Shown here piece by piece: positions 2,622 through 36,960 of a stretch of 38,086 nucleotides of DNA (the first letter of the stretch is position 1; each line of letters starts with the position of its first letter). Source of the DNA: a virus. Its lineage: Duplodnaviria > Heunggongvirae > Uroviricota > Caudoviricetes. The notes under the pieces are model-generated. The model saw only the letters and a program-made list of their open reading frames with translations. It was not told the DNA's origin and did not search any database. The stretch spans positions 1-38,086 of IMG/VR virus record IMGVR_UViG_2684622669_000016; one strand, given 5' to 3'. Position numbers and translations under genes: made by a program.

Positions 2622-2733
2622 ACCTGAAGTTGCCCTGAGAATGAAATTTTTTTGCACAAGCGCAGAACTTTTCTTCGGGGCATCAGTCTTAATTAGTGCC
2701 ACTGCTTTTCTTTGATGTCCCCATTTTGTGGAG

Positions 2734-2776
2734 CCCATCAACCCCGCCATTTAGGTTCAAGGTTGATGGGTTTTTT
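2734..2776 (+). terminator. rho-independent terminator downstream of ybjL
   Basis: Perfect 10-bp stem cccatcaacc (2734-2743) / ggttgatggg (2761-2770) followed by TTTTTT (2771-2776). Confidence 0.55.
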
Positions 2777-2834
2777 GTTGCCTGAAATTTAAGCTATTTA
2801 AAATCATGATGTTAGAAACACTGTTTTTTAACGA

Positions 2835-24480: not shown

Positions 24481-26154
24481 TTAAGATTTATGGCTAAAGA
24501 GTATACCTGTAACAGAACGTTGATAGGCATCAAGCTTCTCTTGCCTCTGCTTAAATTTAGATTTGATATCACTAATACTCGGAATACCTATTACTCCAAG
24601 GCCTGCACTTAACGCCGCTAAAGTAGTATTGCCAGTCAGCGCTCCAGCAATTGCTATAGCACCATTTGCGATACATGGTAGGACATCCAGTCCGTAAATT
24701 CTCAATTTCTCTTTTTGGGCTTTTGCAAGAATCCTTTGATGTTCAATAAAAGCCCGGTCTACATTATCAATTACTTTTTGCGTTGTCCTCGAAAAGCTCT
24801 CTGCCGAAGAATTGATTAAAGAGTCAACACCATTTGATAAGATGGATCTTACATCCTCCATCAATTTGTTACGTCTCAACTCAATTATTTTATTGACCGG
24901 TACATTTCCTAACCATGAAAAACCATCTTGCATACCAGCAGATAACGCATGAACCATATGCAAATTTTTTAGTTCAATATCATTGACATCAAAATTAAGA
25001 GATTCGTACTCAATAAGCCAAGTATAATAGAGCCAAGATGTGTCTGCATTTATATATGGAGTACTACCAAGTTCTTGTGCATTACATTTTGCTGAATAGG
25101 CTTGCGGCATTCTTCCAATGCAGGAAAGGAAAACCTCCATTCCAGCATGATCACCAACAACATTACGTGATATTCTTTTTTTATCAGATAGTAGTTTTTC
25201 TAATTGAGTTTTTGGATTTAGCCCCCATGCTGTATCAAAAATAAGTCTATCTGCTCTCTTAATATTTTTAAGAACAGCATCAATATCATTCATCGAATAA
25301 CTAAAATCTTGAAATTCATCGTAGCTTTCGAACCGTCGATCATAGAGATATTGCGCATGAGTCAGAGCATAAGGCTCACAAAAACTCATCAAATTTTTTT
25401 TGCTCTCAGTTTCAAAATCTCTTCTATCCGGCAAAATTAATACTATTGCTGGCTCTATATCTTCAAGCGCTACTTCTTTATATGTCATACATGTTAGGAC
25501 ATGCTTCAGAAGTATCCTTGTAAACTCAGCCTTATCTGACTTTTCATAGAGACGACCGACTCTTAATATAGGACATGGAAGTGAAATAGTATCAACATAC
25601 AACCCTGCAATAGAGACAGCATTCTCATCAAATGCAGGAAATAAGTCACCAGAAAAATTAGCTTTAAACTGAGAACCATCCTGCAAATGTATTACACCAA
25701 TATCGGATGTTACCTGCCAAAACTCTATTACCTGATTATATAACTCAGGAAAAATATCTTCTATTTGCTTAACATATTCTTCTTGTTGAGAAAAAAAACT
25801 TGATGCTTTATGTGGCGTTGCATTAGTTTTTTTCATCAGATAAAACAACTCGCCAAAATTACTAAAAAGAATATTAAAGTAAGAACTTTGCAAGTCCTGA
25901 ATAGAGTATTTGTTTTTTATATCTTCTCTTTCTAAAAAGTGATTAACCGCTGCTCCCATAGCCCTTATTCTGCCATCAACAGTAGAAGGGTCAACTTTAC
26001 CATCCTGTCGCAGCCTTATTCTTTTAAAACTTTCAATAAAACCTTCTACAAGATGATGAGCTATTTTTAGTTTTCCCGCTTCCAGTTGTTGCTTAATGAG
26101 AAAAACACGCTCAGTTAAATCGTCTACATATTCCTCATCTTGATATTTTTCCAT
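24481..26154 (-). CDS. 557-aa protein of unknown function, AT-rich cargo gene (candidate anti-phage / exclusion gene)
   Basis: Long uninterrupted ORF, visibly AT-rich against the GC-rich structural genes; no recognisable motif by eye; C-terminal Gly/Ala-rich hydrophobic stretch. Confidence 0.8.
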   Translation of the reverse strand: MEKYQDEEYVDDLTERVFLIKQQLEAGKLKIAHHLVEGFIESFKRIRLRQDGKVDPSTVDGRIRAMGAAVNHFLEREDIKNKYSIQDLQSSYFNILFSNFGELFYLMKKTNATPHKASSFFSQQEEYVKQIEDIFPELYNQVIEFWQVTSDIGVIHLQDGSQFKANFSGDLFPAFDENAVSIAGLYVDTISLPCPILRVGRLYEKSDKAEFTRILLKHVLTCMTYKEVALEDIEPAIVLILPDRRDFETESKKNLMSFCEPYALTHAQYLYDRRFESYDEFQDFSYSMNDIDAVLKNIKRADRLIFDTAWGLNPKTQLEKLLSDKKRISRNVVGDHAGMEVFLSCIGRMPQAYSAKCNAQELGSTPYINADTSWLYYTWLIEYESLNFDVNDIELKNLHMVHALSAGMQDGFSWLGNVPVNKIIELRRNKLMEDVRSILSNGVDSLINSSAESFSRTTQKVIDNVDRAFIEHQRILAKAQKEKLRIYGLDVLPCIANGAIAIAGALTGNTTLAALSAGLGVIGIPSISDIKSKFKQRQEKLDAYQRSVTGILFSHKS

Positions 26155-26255
26155 AAACGCTCCATTAAAATATTTAATAATGCATATAAGAATAGTTAAT
26201 AATATTTACAGTAACTATATCACATTAGATCCAGATTGTTACACTGTTGCGCGCG

Positions 26256-26274
26256 CTCGTATCCCCGCCACGCC
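26256..26274 (-). other. candidate cos cohesive-end site
   Basis: Minus strand reads GGCGTGGCGGGGATACGAG, about 15/19 identical to the 186 cohesive end as recalled (GGCGTGGCGGGGAAAGCAT). Confidence 0.5.
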
Positions 26275-26544
26275 TGCCCGCTTTATGTAGTGGTTTTCAT
26301 GCACCTGCATGCTCTACGCAAAAGCCCGCCAGTTCTGGTGGGCCTTAGCAATAACGATCCTCAAACGATCATGCAATCTCATGCAGTATAGGCATGCACA
26401 ACAACTTACCTTAAGAAAAAACATCTGATATGCCCAACTGTTTCGTCTCTTTTCCAGTAGCTTGCTATGGCTTATCTTTAATGCAACTGTAATCGTGTAT
26501 GAAGATACAATCCCTACCAATCATAAAAATGAGGAACACAAAGA

Positions 26545-27285
26545 ATGACTGTGCACAAGCTCTCTGGTGCGTTTTTCCACGATATGCAGGTTGAGTGGCC
26601 CTGCCCTAACTGCAATCAGAAAACCCTACAGATCATTAAAGAAAGTTTCGTCTCGTATGACACACATGATACCCGAAAATTCCGCAGTGAAGATTGGTTT
26701 GAACCAGAAATGGATTCATCTATTTTCAGTTGCATGGCCCGCTGTTCAAGAATGCAATGTGGTGAAGTTGTGGCCTGTACTGGTAAGAGTGGATGGGAAC
26801 AAGGTTGGGATGAAGAAAGAAATGATATTGAGTACTATCAATGGCACAGACCTTTCACCTTTTACCCATCACTGCATCCTTTCGAAATACCTGAAAAATG
26901 CCCAGAAGAAATTACCGAACCGCTTGAAGCCTCATTTTCCATTTTCCTAATACAGCCTGGCGCAGCAGCAAACCTAATTCGAATTTCAGTTGAAAGAATG
27001 CTAACCGCTATGGATGTAGCTGAACGTAATGATAATGGCAAACGCATAACTCTACACCACCGTTTAGGGATGCTACCTGAATTATACGGATCGTTTTCAA
27101 GACCTCTTATGGCAATTAAATTTTTAGGAAATGCCGGAAGCCATACCTACGATGAAGTAAAAGTCAAAGACATTGAGGATGCTTTTGAGATTATGGAGTA
27201 CGTCGTCAATGACTTGTTCTCCGGTCGCAAAGAATCTGTCGAAGTATTGACGAAACGATTAAGTGAAAAATTCAAAGAAAACTGA
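26545..27285 (+). CDS. 246-aa protein: N-terminal Cys-rich zinc-ribbon-like region plus C-terminal DUF4145/HEPN-like domain (candidate abortive-infection effector)
   Basis: Strong SD (tgagga) before the ATG; CPNC…C…CSRMQC cysteine cluster; C-terminal …RITLHHRLG…IKFLGNAGSHTYDE… resembles the DUF4145 signature as recalled; AT-rich. Confidence 0.8.
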   Translation: MTVHKLSGAFFHDMQVEWPCPNCNQKTLQIIKESFVSYDTHDTRKFRSEDWFEPEMDSSIFSCMARCSRMQCGEVVACTGKSGWEQGWDEERNDIEYYQWHRPFTFYPSLHPFEIPEKCPEEITEPLEASFSIFLIQPGAAANLIRISVERMLTAMDVAERNDNGKRITLHHRLGMLPELYGSFSRPLMAIKFLGNAGSHTYDEVKVKDIEDAFEIMEYVVNDLFSGRKESVEVLTKRLSEKFKEN

Positions 27286-27295
27286 TCAAGATACA

Positions 27296-27343
27296 GGTGG
27301 TTCACTTTTACGGGCAAAATAACCGCTTTACTTTTGAACCACC
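27296..27343. terminator. inverted repeat between the convergent 246-aa gene and the dinI-like gene (possible bidirectional terminator)
   Basis: 9-bp arms ggtggttca / tgaaccacc around a 30-nt loop. Confidence 0.3.
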
Positions 27344-27413
27344 TAACACCTCGCTACAATCGTTGTTCAGCCTTGCAGATGGTAAAAGCTAGTTTTATCA
27401 TCCGCAACGTTCT

Positions 27414-27647
27414 CTAATGCAGCCAGCTGTCGTCTTCCCACACCTTCTGCATAATTTTCATCACTTGTTTTCTTTCTTCGTCCAGTTGCAGTCCGGTCAG
27501 TTCCACACCGTTAGAGCTACCTTTGCGGATACGAATTACCGTTTTTGGATACAGGGGGCGCAGATTGCGGTAAAGCTCGGATTCAAGGGCATCCAGGATA
27601 GACTGGCTAATCTTCTGCTCTTTATCGATCATTATTTCAATGCGCAT
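27414..27647 (-). CDS. DinI-family protein (Tum C-terminal-domain-like)
   Basis: 77 aa from the ATG at 27647 (MRIEIMIDKEQKISQSILDALESELYRNL…WEDDSWL); matches the DinI fold pattern. Confidence 0.8.
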   Translation of the reverse strand: MRIEIMIDKEQKISQSILDALESELYRNLRPLYPKTVIRIRKGSSNGVELTGLQLDEERKQVMKIMQKVWEDDSWLH

Positions 27648-27657
27648 AAAAGTCACC

Positions 27658-27846
27658 TCAACTGATGACATCCATTGAGCGGTTGTATTCGTGGGTTCTG
27701 ATTTTTGCCATGAGTTCATCTGTTAGTTCAGAAACCCACTGCAAAGCCAGCCCCTTCTCTTCATCACTACACTCACTAGCCGCTACAAGCTTAAGAAAAA
27801 AATCAATGCGCTGGAGCTTCAAAGACTCCAAAAAATAGTCCTGCAT
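27658..27846 (-). CDS. 62-aa protein, first gene of the LexA-controlled operon (possible Tum N-terminal part)
   Basis: Strong SD (ggagg) before the ATG at 27846; LexA box and promoter directly upstream. Confidence 0.6.
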   Translation of the reverse strand: MQDYFLESLKLQRIDFFLKLVAASECSDEEKGLALQWVSELTDELMAKIRTHEYNRSMDVIS

Positions 27847-27887
27847 TTTTCCTCCTATGACACCACAAGCAATACTGTATGCATAAC

Positions 27888-27907
27888 CACTGTTTATATT
27901 TACAGTA
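27888..27907 (-). promoter_or_regulatory. LexA (SOS) box overlapping the promoter of the tum/dinI-like operon
   Basis: caCTGTttatatttACAGta, a perfect CTGT-N8-ACAG; promoter-like TTTACA and an AT-rich -10 just upstream on the minus strand. Confidence 0.7.
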
Positions 27908-27998
27908 TATAATAATCTTACTGATGTAAAACGTTTTTTACGTTCATCAGCCTGATATGCCTGGTATTATTAAGAGCACGAATTGTTAATCAGCGTAA

Positions 27999-30440
27999 TT
28001 AATACATGTTCCGCCATTTATCATCCTCCTGCAGACGCTGGTTCCGATAGAAGATACGCAGGCCTGCTCCTGACGGAATACTGCCACCGCGAAGGAGCAA
28101 CTCGACCTCTTTCTCGCTGCCATCAAATCCTCTGGACTTCAGTTCATAGACAAGCTGCTGTCGCTGATGGTCTGTAATTCGCTGTTTGTAGTCTTTACGC
28201 CGTTTCGGTTTCACCAGGCGTAACCTTGCTGCCAGTTCCCGGCGATCTTTTTTGCTCATACTGTGCAGATAATCGTGCAACTCCTTGTCATCCATGCAGG
28301 TAATGTCCGTTCTGGTGTCCCCATCAGCTGATTTATCTTTCTCCTGCTGGTTCAAATTTTCAGCAAGGGGACAGTTATTGCCACGAGTCCAAGGGGCGCA
28401 AGCGCCCTGGTCGGCTGCCGCCTCCTGAATGTCAACGGCCTTACGAACCATTTTCCACTTCACCGCATGAGTGCAGATCTTGCCCTCTGCAATGGGTGAC
28501 CAGATGCCATAAATACGAATGCCGTGATCGCCATAGGCGGTCGGCTCTTCGTTGATTTCATAAGCAGTTCTGATGAGGTGATATTTGCGGGGAACCAGTA
28601 CGCCGCCCTGCTTCATGATGTAGGTAGCAAAACAACCAGCATCAGCAGCAGCCAGGATTGCATCAAGGCGCGGGTTATCCAGTACCGGCGCACCTGCTTT
28701 TTTGTCCCCCTGTTGCCTTGCAACCTGACCAGCCAGCAATCGCAGTTCACGGTAAGCCTGACGCCCCGGAATGCCAAAGAAGCGGAATTGCTGAACACGA
28801 TGCAGAGACGCCCAGGCATTAACGTATTCAGCGTTATCACGCAGGGATTTACCCGTTTCCTTGCTGATCTCGCCAGCCAGACCACGCCCGTCAATGTTCT
28901 TACTGATGTATTTCGCGATGTAGCTTGTTGGCGTACCTTTGCGCGGGTTTATCAGCTCAGACTTAAAGCGTGGTCCCGTGTTATTACCCAGCTCCTCGCG
29001 GTCTTCACGAATGGCAAACTTACGCAACAAAGCAGTAATGGCACGGCGATCTTTTTTGCGCATAAAACACAACAGGTGCCAGTGAACTGTACCGTCATGA
29101 TGCGGCTCAGCTACCCGCACGCCATACCAGCGCAATCCGGCTTTGTGCATCGCCTTACGAAATGCAGCAAACATGCCGACCAGATAATCACTGCTTTGTC
29201 TTACCGTCGCATTTGTCCATGTCGGGTTTGGTCTGCCGTTATTGAGCGTGGAATGGAAACGTGACGGACAGGTGATGGTGTAGAAAACGGCGCAGTCACC
29301 GCGCATTTCCGCGATAAGTTCCAGACCTTTAACACAGGCCATCATCTCATTGCGGCGGTGCGCCGGGTTGCTGCTGCTGGCGTTTACCACATCTTCCATA
29401 TCCAGCGTGTCGCCGTCTTCGTTCACCAGTTCATGAGAACGGAAAAACTCCAGCGACTTACGGCGCTGCTCACGTTTATGCATCACGGCTTCATAGCTGA
29501 CATAGGGGGATGCTTTTTTGCTGACCAGGCAGACAGCACGCAACTGCTCTTCCCGCCATTCGCAACGCATCTTCCATAATTTCCGATACCACCAGTCGGC
29601 ACACAACATACGCGCCAGCGAACCCGGAATGAGTTCATAGGGCACGGGTTTACGGCGGTTTCTTTTCCGACGGAGTTGCTCAAACGCAGGCGGAATAACA
29701 TCCAGACGCAGGGTTTCCGCTGCCACCTTTTCCCATGTTTTGCGGATTTCTTCTGGCTTAACGTCATCGGTGGCATACAAATCACCACAAGCGGCATCAA
29801 GGCACATGCTCATATGCGCAGCGACAAGGGTAGACAGGCGCTTCACCTGATCCTGACTCATTTCAGGCAGGATAAGCAGGCCATCCAGCCCTTCATGACT
29901 TGCCATAAAGCGAAAAGAAGTGGATAGCTGACAGTCGCGGACATGCTCCAGTCGTTCCAGACATGGCTTAATCGTCTCACGCAAATAGCGGGAATAAGCC
30001 TTTGGCCTGCCCAGGCTGCTGAAATATTCAATACGTTGCATCAGCGGCTTGCTGATATGGGAAGGCTGGGCGTTGACGTCAGCCAGAATGACCATGTCTG
30101 GATTAAAACGCTGCTGCTCATGCGCCAGCTTTGCCCGGCTAATGAGCTTATCCTGCTCCATTTCGTGCTGGACAGGATCACGGGATTCATTAAAGAAATA
30201 ACGCTCCCAGACCTGATCACTCAGTGCCTCGCGGCGCAGTTGTTCCTGCTCGTTATCGGCAGCGTACAGAGTGATCAGGTTTGAAAGTGCAGAAACCGGC
30301 GCAACTTCCGCCGGGTCCAGATAAGGGTTAATGGCCTTTTTCGGGCTGTTCCATGAGAATGCTGCGGCGACCTCGTTAAAGCCGCTGCAGTTGTTCATAT
30401 CAGCATGGCTCATGCACGCACTCCGTACACGGCGGAACAA
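27999..30440 (-). CDS. A: replication initiation protein A (rolling-circle HUH endonuclease)
   Basis: 813 aa; HUH-type motif (…[12 protein letters not shown]…); size and position as P2 gpA; the true start may be the ATG at 30413. Confidence 0.9.
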
Positions 30441-34208: not shown

Positions 34209-35147
34209 ATGCCAACTCAAAAAATCACATTTCGCCATATTGAAGATAGTCTGAAAGCTATGGTCATGCAGAATCGTGGAGGGCAAAAAGTCATTGAGAG
34301 GATACTCAAGGCCTATGGTTTCAAATCACGCCAAGCCTTCTGTAAGCATCTTGGTATTTCACAAAGCACAATGGCTAATAGATATGCACGCGATACCTTC
34401 CCTGCTGATTGGGTTGTTATATGTTCAATGGAAACTGGCGCATCCCTAGAATGGCTGGCCTTTGGTTCTAACAATGCAGAAGAAAGTTCCCCCCCTTATG
34501 TGGAACAACATGATGAAACAGTCCCACATGAGGGGTTTAACAGCAACGCTCATCAATCATCCTTTAAGCGCCGCATTGAGAATCACATTGAGCTTACTAA
34601 CGGAGGAAAAGCCGCGATAGAGAGGATTGTTAATGCTTACGGGTTTAAAACCCGCCAAGCCTTAGCCGACCACCTTGGTATTTCAAAAAGCACATTAGCC
34701 ACACGATACATGCGAGATTCTTTCCCTGCGGATTGGGTGATTAAATGCGCATTAGAAACCAAAGCGGATCTCGCCTGGCTAGTTACAGGAATCGAAACAC
34801 CAAATAGTTCACAAGAAGAAAACACTGTAATTTTAAATAAGTTCAATTTGGTCAATGGCGTGCTTGTCGAGTCAGGTTTTTTATCCATGGATCGGTGTCT
34901 ACTTCCGAAGCAAGAAACTAGCAGCTTGATGTTTGTAAGCAATGGAGAAAAACATGTCATATGTGATAAAGAATTTCACCTAATTAGAGATGGAAAATGG
35001 TTAGTAGGAATTGACAATGAGTTATCTTTAAAAGAGTTAACTCGTTTACCTAAGAACAAAATTCTTGTTTCTGGTGGGAGTAAGGATTTTGAGTGTTCCA
35101 TTGAGGATATTCAAATTATAGCCAGCATTATCTTAACAATACAATAA
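34209..35147 (+). CDS. cI: CI-type immunity repressor with tandemly duplicated N-terminal DNA-binding domain
   Basis: 312 aa; two 186-CI-like units (…ERILKAYGFKSRQAFCKHLGISQSTMANRYARDTFPADWVVICSMETGASLEWL… and …ERIVNAYGFKTRQALADHLGISKSTLATRYMRDSFPADWVIKCALETKADLAWL…) followed by a C-terminal domain. Confidence 0.85.
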   Translation: MPTQKITFRHIEDSLKAMVMQNRGGQKVIERILKAYGFKSRQAFCKHLGISQSTMANRYARDTFPADWVVICSMETGASLEWLAFGSNNAEESSPPYVEQHDETVPHEGFNSNAHQSSFKRRIENHIELTNGGKAAIERIVNAYGFKTRQALADHLGISKSTLATRYMRDSFPADWVIKCALETKADLAWLVTGIETPNSSQEENTVILNKFNLVNGVLVESGFLSMDRCLLPKQETSSLMFVSNGEKHVICDKEFHLIRDGKWLVGIDNELSLKELTRLPKNKILVSGGSKDFECSIEDIQIIASIILTIQ

Positions 35148-35190: not shown

Positions 35191-36960
35191 ATGAATCATC
35201 ATCTTTCAAAGATTTCTATAAAAAACTTTAGATCTTGCAAAGATATTGATATCAATTTTTCTTCATTCACGCCTTTAATCGGTTACAACAATGCTGGTAA
35301 GTCAACGATTTTAAATGCTATTGAATGGCTTTTTAAGAAAAAACTTTTGTCCTCTGATGATTATACTAATCCAGATAACCCTATAGAAGTTATAGGTACA
35401 GTTAAGGGTATTACTGAAGATATTTTGTCAGCTTTAACAGAAGAAAACAGAACTAGAATTTCACCCTACATTATTGACGGGGTATTGATATTTAAGCGTC
35501 AACAGCCTGTTGGTGCTCAAAGTGCAAAAGACGTCAGATTATTAATTAAAAACCCAGAAAATAACGAATTCAGGACATCACCAACGGGTATTGAGAATGC
35601 GATAAAAGCTTTATTTCCAGACCCAATACGTATAGGTGCAATGGAAAATGCAGCGGATGATTCTTCAAAATCAAAAACAGGAACTACAATAGGTAAGTTG
35701 CTGGCAGAATTGAGTTGCAAAATAGAAGAGAAGCACACTCAAAGGATACTAAGCCATTTAAATGCCGTTAATAGAAGAATGACTGCAACCGGTAATAAAC
35801 GAATATCGGACCTCAATGATATTGATGATTCAATAAGTAGTAAAGTTGCTGATTTCTTCCCTGGGATAAGTTTAAAACTACACTTCGAACTCCCTGACTT
35901 CAAGGATATATTTAAATCAGGGACTGTAAAAGTATATGAAGATTCATTTCCCGGCATTGCTCGTGACTGTTCTTCTTATGGTCATGGCACACAGCGTTCG
36001 ATTCAGATGGCTCTAATAAGACATTTAGCTGATATAACCAACGGTGATGATATTAAAACAACTACTCTACTGTTAATAGATGAACCTGAGTTATATCTTC
36101 ACCCATTTGCTATCGAACAAATTAGAGAATCTCTAAAAACACTATCTCATCATGGATATCAAATAATTTTCTCTACCCATTCATCTCAAATGATTACCTC
36201 TGACTTAGCAAAAGACACTGTGTTAATCAGAAAAAACAGTCAGCGTGGCACTCATTGCAGATTAACATTAAAAGAAGCAGTCAATAAAGTAATCGAACAA
36301 CGACCAGCACAAGCAACCCATTTATTTTCATTAACACAGTCTTCAAAAGTTTTGTTTGCTAACAATGTAATACTAACAGAAGGTAAAACAGAGACTACTC
36401 TGCTCCCATTTATTTTTAACAAAGTTAAAAATAAAACATTAGGTCAGATGCAAATAGCACTAATTGAAACAGGGTCCGTTGAAAGTATATCTAAAACGAT
36501 GCAAATTCTAAATTCAATGGATATACCTACAAAAGCAATTGTTGATTTAGATTTTGCGTTCCGCGGTGCAATAAGGAACAACTTCTTAGAACATAATGAC
36601 GAGGATATTTTACGACTAAAAGAAATCTTGAGAAGTATGCATGCTAATGGAGAATGCACTCTCGATGGATCCGGTTTGCCTACAAAGGGTAGTAACACTA
36701 CCGCAGCTGAAGCATTTGCTATTATGTCTCAAAAGCCCGGCGCCAGAGAATTTTTGTCATCATTAGCCGCAAAACTGAGAAATGCAAATATTTGGATTTG
36801 GCTAAATGGTTCGATAGAAAACCATTTGGGTCTTACAGAAAAAAATGAATCAGTATGGGCTGATTTCAAAACAAAAGCAGATACACAACCTCTTTCAGAT
36901 ATCTGTGCAGATTTCGAAAGTATTGAGGCTTTAGTCGACTGGATTACCCCTGACGTATGA
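35191..36960 (+). CDS. old: OLD-family ATPase/Toprim nuclease (P2 Old homologue)
   Basis: 589 aa; Walker A GYNNAGKST; FRSCK, IDEPELYLHP and Toprim VILTEGKTE motifs; collinear with P2 Old as recalled; AT-rich; GGAGG SD. Confidence 0.85.
   Translation: MNHHLSKISIKNFRSCKDIDINFSSFTPLIGYNNAGKSTILNAIEWLFKKKLLSSDDYTNPDNPIEVIGTVKGITEDILSALTEENRTRISPYIIDGVLIFKRQQPVGAQSAKDVRLLIKNPENNEFRTSPTGIENAIKALFPDPIRIGAMENAADDSSKSKTGTTIGKLLAELSCKIEEKHTQRILSHLNAVNRRMTATGNKRISDLNDIDDSISSKVADFFPGISLKLHFELPDFKDIFKSGTVKVYEDSFPGIARDCSSYGHGTQRSIQMALIRHLADITNGDDIKTTTLLLIDEPELYLHPFAIEQIRESLKTLSHHGYQIIFSTHSSQMITSDLAKDTVLIRKNSQRGTHCRLTLKEAVNKVIEQRPAQATHLFSLTQSSKVLFANNVILTEGKTETTLLPFIFNKVKNKTLGQMQIALIETGSVESISKTMQILNSMDIPTKAIVDLDFAFRGAIRNNFLEHNDEDILRLKEILRSMHANGECTLDGSGLPTKGSNTTAAEAFAIMSQKPGAREFLSSLAAKLRNANIWIWLNGSIENHLGLTEKNESVWADFKTKADTQPLSDICADFESIEALVDWITPDV

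Follow-up and report, generated by a model that had tools for sequence, protein, structure and literature searches.

The locus at positions 27,414 to 27,907 of the window, that is, the whole stretch of viral DNA that was analysed (38,086 nucleotides), is very probably an intact two-gene SOS-induction operon, tumA/tumB, of a 186/Fels-2-type P2-like prophage. It is the two-gene form of the tum module of phage 186, an arrangement that has already been described for the Salmonella phages Fels-2 and PSP3 and that is extremely common. An earlier note, made from the sequence alone, had considered either a tum gene interrupted by a frameshift, through mutation or sequencing error, or a genuine two-gene variant; the latter is borne out, as the same pair of genes occurs in Escherichia coli genomes and in isolated phages. 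The anatomy of the operon, its homologies, its conservation and its two-gene status are directly observed. The operon lies on the minus strand directly downstream of the replication gene A (813 codons, 27999-30440). Its features, together with the gene of the presumed target, are the following:

27925-27930, minus strand: TTTACA, a putative -35 hexamer for the SOS promoter (analogous to p95), read from the sequence and invariant in 10/10 related phages.
27888-27907, minus strand: LexA box TACTGTAAATATAAACAGTG, 17/20 to the consensus (0/100 shuffles), the homologue of the LexA site annotated in 186.
27907-27902, minus strand: putative -10 hexamer TACTGT, the first six bases of the LexA box.
27851-27856, minus strand: Shine-Dalgarno sequence AGGAGG, 4 nt ahead of the ATG of the first gene, read from the sequence and invariant in 10/10 phages.
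27658-27846, minus strand: tumA-like gene (62 aa), orthologous to Fels-2 STM2728 and presumed to encode an antirepressor, by phrog_698, hhalign, identity to Fels-2 and dN/dS (0.06-0.09).
27659-27654, minus strand: Shine-Dalgarno sequence GAGGTG of the second gene, overlapping the TGA stop codon of the first.
27648-27657, minus strand: intergenic spacer of 10 nt.
27414-27647, minus strand: tumB-like gene (77 aa, DinI-family protein), by Pfam DinI, identities to PSP3 TumB and 186 Tum, and dN/dS.
27369-27411, minus strand: conserved hairpin right after the tumB stop codon, by RNAalifold on seven phages.
34209-35147, plus strand: gene for the 186-type CI immunity repressor (312 aa), on which the TumA-like protein presumably acts, by Pfam (PF07022 twice, PF16452).

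The LexA box that had been pointed out as CTGT-N8-ACAG at 27890-27905 is present and is the sole copy of this motif in the window. The core motif alone is not rare, occurring at least once in 31 of 100 shuffles; the full 20-mer (27907-27888, minus strand) agrees with the LexA consensus TACTGTATATATATACAGTA at 17 of 20 positions, a score that was not reached in 100 shuffles. The promoter proposed to overlap the box is supported by position, although a consensus promoter scan called no sigma-70 site at the operon, which we ascribe to TACTGT being a poor -10 hexamer. Read by position, TTTACA (27930-27925) is followed after 17 nt by TACTGT (27907-27902), a layout similar to that annotated for p95 of 186, which consists of TTCACA, 18 nt and TACTGT with the LexA site beginning at the -10. 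The -35 hexamer, the LexA box and both ribosome-binding sites are kept in 10/10 aligned phages, with the exception of a single half-site change. This change is located in the Klebsiella phage ST15-OXA48phi14.1 (L006), where the right half-site of the LexA box upstream of 7310 has changed from CAG to CAT (TACTGTAAATATAAACATTG), which might weaken LexA repression of the tum operon of this phage. A further motif, ATACAG, which resembles a LexA right half-site (ATACAGTA; 27871-27879, minus strand), is situated between the LexA box and the tumA Shine-Dalgarno sequence, about 10 nt downstream of the box, and is likewise kept in 10/10 phages.

The 62-aa ORF at 27658-27846 on the minus strand (ORF62) is present as had been described. 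A PHROG profile search assigned it to phrog_698 (E 3.6e-38), with additional matches to phrog_8554 (2.4e-8) and phrog_1993 (2.2e-3); PSP3 TumA is a member of phrog_1993 (2.7e-32), and residues 1-70 of 186 Tum match phrog_1993 (1.5e-23), phrog_8554 (3.4e-12) and phrog_698 (5.9e-6). Alignment by hhalign of the ORF62 family (35 sequences) with the family of the 186 Tum N-terminus and TumA (27 sequences) yielded a probability of 96.2% and an E-value of 2.4e-9 over 43 columns, pairing residues 2-44 of ORF62 with residues 2-44 of Tum. Judged by these profiles, ORF62 and the first 44 residues of 186 Tum are distantly but genuinely homologous, and the two share a core that can be approximated as L-x-R-I/V-D/E-x-I/F-x-R/K-L-x-A-x-x-x-C-x-x-x-D/E-K/R-x-L/I-A-L-x-W/L-I/V-x-E-L. 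BLASTP of ORF62 against 186 Tum and against PSP3 TumA produced no alignment, no family was assigned by Pfam, NCBIfam or PADLOC, and a sequence search of the PDB returned no match to ORF62. AlphaFold2 predicts two helices (2-23 and 28-61) that form a hairpin (mean pLDDT 87.7), for which Foldseek against PDB and BFVD retrieved generic helical hairpins only, none of them at E <= 0.001. The ORF62 protein has exact counterparts (100% identity) in Escherichia phage Cartapus and in several Klebsiella phages, differs at a single residue from Fels-2 STM2728 (61/62) and likewise from its RE2010 counterpart (61/62), and is conserved to 89% in SopEPhi and SEN8 and to 84% in Yersinia phage MLG42. The 62-aa product is a TumA-type protein with a presumed role as antirepressor.

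The assignment of the second ORF (27414-27647, minus strand) to the DinI family is confirmed by Pfam, as its 77-aa product matches PF06183 with an E-value of 1.3e-22 and 80.4 bits against a gathering cut-off of 24.2, covering profile positions 1-63 of 63. The protein aligns without gaps to residues 71-145 of 186 Tum (41% identity), and residue 71 of Tum, which coincides with the tumB start, is the annotated internal GTG start of a separate 'truncated Tum' in 186. The link to 186 Tum that had been proposed thus holds for both ORFs, with ORF62 corresponding to Tum residues 2-44 and the DinI-like ORF to residues 71-145. The second product is furthermore 77% identical to PSP3 TumB and shares 76/77 residues with Fels-2 STM2726.1. 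The equivalog model of chromosomal DinI, NCBIfam NF007893, reached 42 bits against a cut-off of 111; by these matches, the tumB product is a DinI-like protein other than the host dinI orthologue. The only solved relative is E. coli DinI (PDB 1ghh), which is also the sole PDB sequence match for Tum, and binding to RecA filaments and modulation of the coprotease may be inferred for the tumB product from E. coli DinI. The gene is equipped with its own Shine-Dalgarno sequence, GAGGTG, 6 nt upstream of an ATG at 27647, which is located 10 nt past the tumA stop codon. The two ORFs had been described as overlapping by 62 nt by way of an in-frame upstream extension to 27719. An ORF from 27414 to 27719 does exist on the minus strand, but the extension lies outside the gene: the DinI profile fits the ATG-27647 start, its alignment beginning at residue 1 of that product, and the genes do not overlap but are 10 nt apart (27648-27657). 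The extension is open only in the subtype with the 10-nt spacer, is without a start codon in SEN8 and SopEPhi and is closed after four codons in YpM_MLG42. Therefore, the stretch up to the ATG at 27719 is no part of the tumB gene.

The presumed target of the TumA-like protein is encoded in a switch region that consists of an Apl/Cox-like gene (34121-33900, minus strand), a CII-like gene (33876-33358, minus strand; PF06892) and the divergent gene for CI (34209-35147, plus strand). CI contains two PF07022 stretches (CI HTH) and PF16452 (CI C-terminal domain), and no S24 (LexA-like) peptidase domain is found among its Pfam matches. With a CI that lacks a self-cleavage domain, SOS induction therefore needs an antirepressor, as it does in 186 (PMC7708051), whose Tum binds CI and is required for induction by UV or mitomycin (Shearwin et al. 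1998, as cited). LexA control, antirepressor activity and a RecA-related role are taken over for the operon from 186, PSP3, Fels-2 and SopEPhi, and on this analogy we infer the following course. In the lysogen, LexA would occupy the box that overlaps the -10 of the promoter just downstream of gene A and keep the operon off; upon DNA damage, LexA would be cleaved and the operon transcribed. The 62-aa two-helix protein would then bind the 186-type CI of the prophage and block its binding to DNA, resulting in lytic development, and the 77-aa DinI-like protein, which corresponds to the C-terminal half of Tum and to PSP3 TumB, would act on RecA filaments and in this way modulate the SOS signal.

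The CI of the window carries its tandem 186-CI-type HTH domains at about residues 24-86 and 130-200. A doubled HTH also occurs in the CI proteins of Klebsiella phage ST11-VIM1phi8.4 (311 aa) and PSP3 (286 aa), while Fels-2, RE2010, Cartapus and others possess a CI of 209-210 aa with a single HTH; the CI of 186 comprises 192 aa.

A TumA-like protein with 98-100% identity co-occurs with at least five different CI proteins, namely the 312-aa form of the window, a 311-aa form that is 54% identical to it, and three forms of 209-210 aa with identities of 39-44%. By domain, the HTH parts of these repressors are 61-89% identical and the C-terminal domains only 24-34%. A near-invariant TumA-like protein next to divergent CI proteins would not be expected for a strictly cognate pair of antirepressor and repressor. 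It might thus be argued that the operon is under SOS control and that its 62-aa product is not an antirepressor of the CI of the window, either because it has another target or because this CI has escaped. In line with such a reading, the CI is unusual in its length of 312 aa and its two HTH domains, with a C-terminal domain that has only 24-34% identity to those of Fels-2, RE2010 and Cartapus, and the tum genes adjoin gene A, far from cI, so that recombination could uncouple the two. However, across 14 phages TumA similarity correlates much more closely with how alike the CI proteins are in the HTH (Spearman 0.82) than with how alike they are in the C-terminal domain (0.26), the pairs not being independent of one another; purifying selection on ORF62 is strong in all these CI backgrounds; and a 186-type CI is present in every examined phage with the gene. 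We therefore regard a missing match between the 62-aa protein and this CI as rather unlikely and favor the TumA-like protein as the presumed antirepressor. The correlation with the HTH is suggestive, being compatible with binding to the conserved DNA-binding domain and also with mere linkage or mosaicism. As a tentative extension, for which we would claim no great likelihood, a near-invariant TumA-type antirepressor may serve prophages with very different CI proteins, with one HTH or two, by binding to their conserved HTH, so that a single SOS-induced allele could cross-induce several co-resident P2-like prophages that differ in CI type; separately and with equal reserve, the hairpin behind tumB may be a regulatory RNA element.

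The reading of the locus as a 186-type tum gene broken by a frameshift, which would leave the prophage not SOS-inducible, can draw on the two ORFs lying in different frames, on the sum of 62 and 77 codons, which approaches the 146 aa of Tum, and on the occurrence, in close relatives of 186, of tum genes that really are frameshifted or truncated, for example P0206 and P0235, with a 32-aa DinI remnant. The conservation of the split stands against it. The 651-nt region is present in 1,125 of 5,426 complete E. coli genomes, where RefSeq annotates a 'hypothetical protein' and a 'DinI-like family protein' without a pseudogene label, and in 67 phage records from Klebsiella, Salmonella, Escherichia and Yersinia; an identical layout in some 1,100 E. 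coli genomes is thus joined by that in the isolated, viable phages Fels-2, RE2010, SopEPhi, Cartapus and MLG42. Both tumA and tumB are under purifying selection. In comparisons with nine phages (Nei-Gojobori), dN/dS of tumA lies at 0.00-0.09 and that of tumB at 0.04-0.09, with dS reaching about 1-1.5; values of 0.04-0.09 in both ORFs at dS of up to about 1 count against a broken gene. The junction between the genes varies: the spacer measures 10, 11 or 12 nt across the phages compared and 3 nt in PSP3, and the first gene ends in TGA, TAA or TAG. Therefore, the second gene is placed in the +1, the +2 or the same frame relative to the first, that is, in all three relative frames, and a gene disabled by a frameshift, or one read by programmed frameshifting, would not show so unconserved a junction. 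Moreover, the second gene has a Shine-Dalgarno sequence and an ATG of its own, and the ORF62 family is without any fused member: none of its 66 cluster representatives (50% identity) is fused to DinI, the few longer ones being alternative start calls or chimeric assemblies. At the locus itself, a single fused ORF of the Tum type (~146 aa) is absent; a stop codon and a 10-nt spacer separate two conserved genes.

We consider this comparative sequence evidence decisive for two genes; it refutes the broken tum gene, a highly improbable reading, and the loss of SOS induction that had been envisaged as a consequence of the frameshift falls with it, both genes being intact. The earlier note had also set its frameshift against two possible findings, an ORF62 without similarity to the Tum N-terminus and relatives with the same two separate genes. 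The relatives do carry the separate genes; the similarity of ORF62 to the Tum N-terminus is nil by BLASTP but is found by profiles. Its suggestion to locate an indel by alignment with 186 tum proved meaningless, since residues 45-70 of Tum form a linker without recognisable counterpart and the length of the junction varies among the relatives. Equally improbable is a programmed ribosomal frameshift or readthrough that would yield one Tum-like polypeptide from both ORFs: in the 10-nt-spacer subtype, the DinI frame extends for 25 open codons ahead of the gene, overlapping the end of ORF62 and containing an A5 run, and 186 yields a fused as well as a separate DinI-like product, but this extension lacks conservation (SEN8 and SopEPhi have 14 codons in another frame, MLG42 has four), the relatives would require +1 or +2 shifts or stop readthrough, respectively, no canonical slippery heptamer is evident, and the ribosome-binding site and ATG of the second gene are conserved.

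The two-gene operon is closest to that of Fels-2 (STM2728/STM2726.1), with which it shares 61/62 and 76/77 residues and the same 10-nt spacer GGTGACTTTT, LexA box and promoter; the same gene pair occurs in RE2010 and SopEPhi. Differences are the host, Salmonella instead of E. coli, the sequence downstream of tumB, and the CI, which in Fels-2 has 210 aa and one HTH, compared to 312 aa and two HTH in the window, at 41% identity. On these identities, the window carries the Fels-2 allele of the described module. That tum is split in two in Fels-2 and PSP3 has been stated by Lemire et al. 2011 (PMC3121763), who also refer to the upstream gene of PSP3 as the antirepressor, citing a personal communication of E. 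Christie in Bunny et al. 2002; the title of the latter paper, as cited there, states that Fels-2 makes a lexA-null lethal in Salmonella LT2. In SopEPhi, inflammation-driven induction has been ascribed to 'the antirepressor Tum', whose expression is SOS-dependent (review, PMC9827884).

In the PSP3 record (NC_005340), tumA is annotated as 'similar to 5' end 186 tum; UV induction of prophage' and tumB as 'similar to dinI and 3' end of 186 tum'. These genes (PSP3p39/p40) likewise follow gene A, with a LexA box over the -10 and a gene of ~60 aa ahead of one for a 77-aa DinI-like protein; TumB is 77% identical, and the TumA family, phrog_1993, is weakly matched by ORF62. In contrast, PSP3 TumA and ORF62 are beyond the reach of BLASTP, with only the helix-loop-helix core motif in common, and the PSP3 spacer is 3 nt and in frame, compared to 10 nt and +1 in the window. 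The p95 SOS operon of 186 with its 146-aa Tum is similar in its LexA-repressed promoter after gene A, in the relatedness of the N-terminal ~44 residues of Tum to ORF62, in the DinI-like C-terminal 76 residues, in the CI/Apl/CII type of switch, and in the separate translation of the DinI-like part from an internal GTG. It differs in uniting both modules in one polypeptide across a linker of ~25 residues, where the window has two genes, and in orf97, which is missing in the window and has a convergent DUF4145 gene in its stead. The dinI-gfoA/gftA operons of the Gifsy phages (Lemire et al. 2011, PMC3121763) are also LexA-controlled and combine a DinI homologue with a small antirepressor directed against a non-cleavable repressor; here, the likeness is one of operon make-up, the order is reversed with dinI first, and the phages are lambdoid.

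TumA-type genes also occur without a DinI gene, as in ESSI2_ev040 and in Yersinia phage 06.16-2 ('tum protein', 60 aa). There are, in addition, 186-type TumA-only 'Tum proteins' of 63-67 aa that are followed by a DNA methylase or other unrelated cargo, and most proteins closely homologous to the N-terminal region of 186 Tum stand alone, with 63-78 aa. These stand-alone genes indicate that the small N-module is an autonomous effector with the DinI module as an optional partner, and that the fused Tum of 186 is the unusual form. The sequences compared also point to two separate genes as the usual arrangement, with the fusion seen in 186 Tum as an exception, and to the small N-module as the unit that selection retains.

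Genuinely frameshifted or truncated copies of tum do exist among close relatives of 186 (L025 1201-1640; P0206, P0235, P0237). In these damaged copies of the 186 type the N-module is intact and the C-terminal tail is out of frame, and at one locus a 32-aa DinI remnant is left.

RefSeq and the majority of phage records call the product of the first gene a 'hypothetical protein', a few records a 'levan regulatory' protein, and the second gene is given just as 'DinI-like'. The pair is most likely the DNA-damage switch of very common P2-like prophages of E. coli, Salmonella and Klebsiella. As the locus is intact, the prophage should be treated as potentially SOS-inducible and not as crippled, and the useful output of the analysis is a correction of the annotation, from 'hypothetical protein' to TumA-type presumed antirepressor in an intact locus.

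The hairpin right after the tumB stop codon (27369-27411, minus strand) comprises 17 pairs, seven of them with compensatory double changes, in an RNAalifold analysis of seven phages, and the fold z-score of the 141-nt region at this position is -3.3. What follows it is not a U-tract but a single-stranded stretch that is conserved, AAGGTTGAACAACGAG...GCGAGGCGTT. Counterparts are located at 8431-8502 in L005, at 7740-7811 in L006 and at about 8432-8504 in L011-L014. The hairpin is absent from Fels-2, RE2010 and ST11-VIM1phi8.4, in which divergence sets in directly at the stop codon. It could be the 3' end of the operon transcript or a stabiliser thereof, or the border of a cargo hotspot; an Rfam search of the region returned no family, the best match having an E-value of 0.87. 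A terminator-like hairpin at the tumA stop codon and tumB Shine-Dalgarno sequence, GTCATC-AGTTGA-GGTGAC, the one hit of this kind in the consensus scan, was considered as an element of translational coupling and rejected, since it is missing from the phages with 11- or 12-nt spacers.

The tumB and DUF4145 genes converge, and a second strong hairpin (27294-27345, GGTGGTTCA...TGAACCACC) is located between them; it may be a bidirectional terminator, though there is a clear U-tract on neither side. The cargo between tumB and the portal gene (24481-27285) includes the convergent DUF4145 gene (26545-27285, plus strand), with a weak match to PD-T7-4 (E 2e-5), and a 557-aa ORF (24481-26154, minus strand) without a Pfam domain and with a weak match to DitB (E 6e-10). 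A near-identical E. coli locus (L002) carries different genes at this place, which marks the cargo region as a variable hotspot. A full-length homologue of P2 Old (35191-36960, plus strand; PADLOC Old E 1.4e-234, with AAA_15 and OLD-like TOPRIM domains) is encoded in the interval that separates cI from the integrase gene, which occupies 37034 to the end of the window. Near the left end of the window, the gene of the host sRNA RybB is found (2701-2779, plus strand; Rfam RF00110, 106.5 bits), which probably indicates the side of the prophage attachment site on which the chromosome lies.
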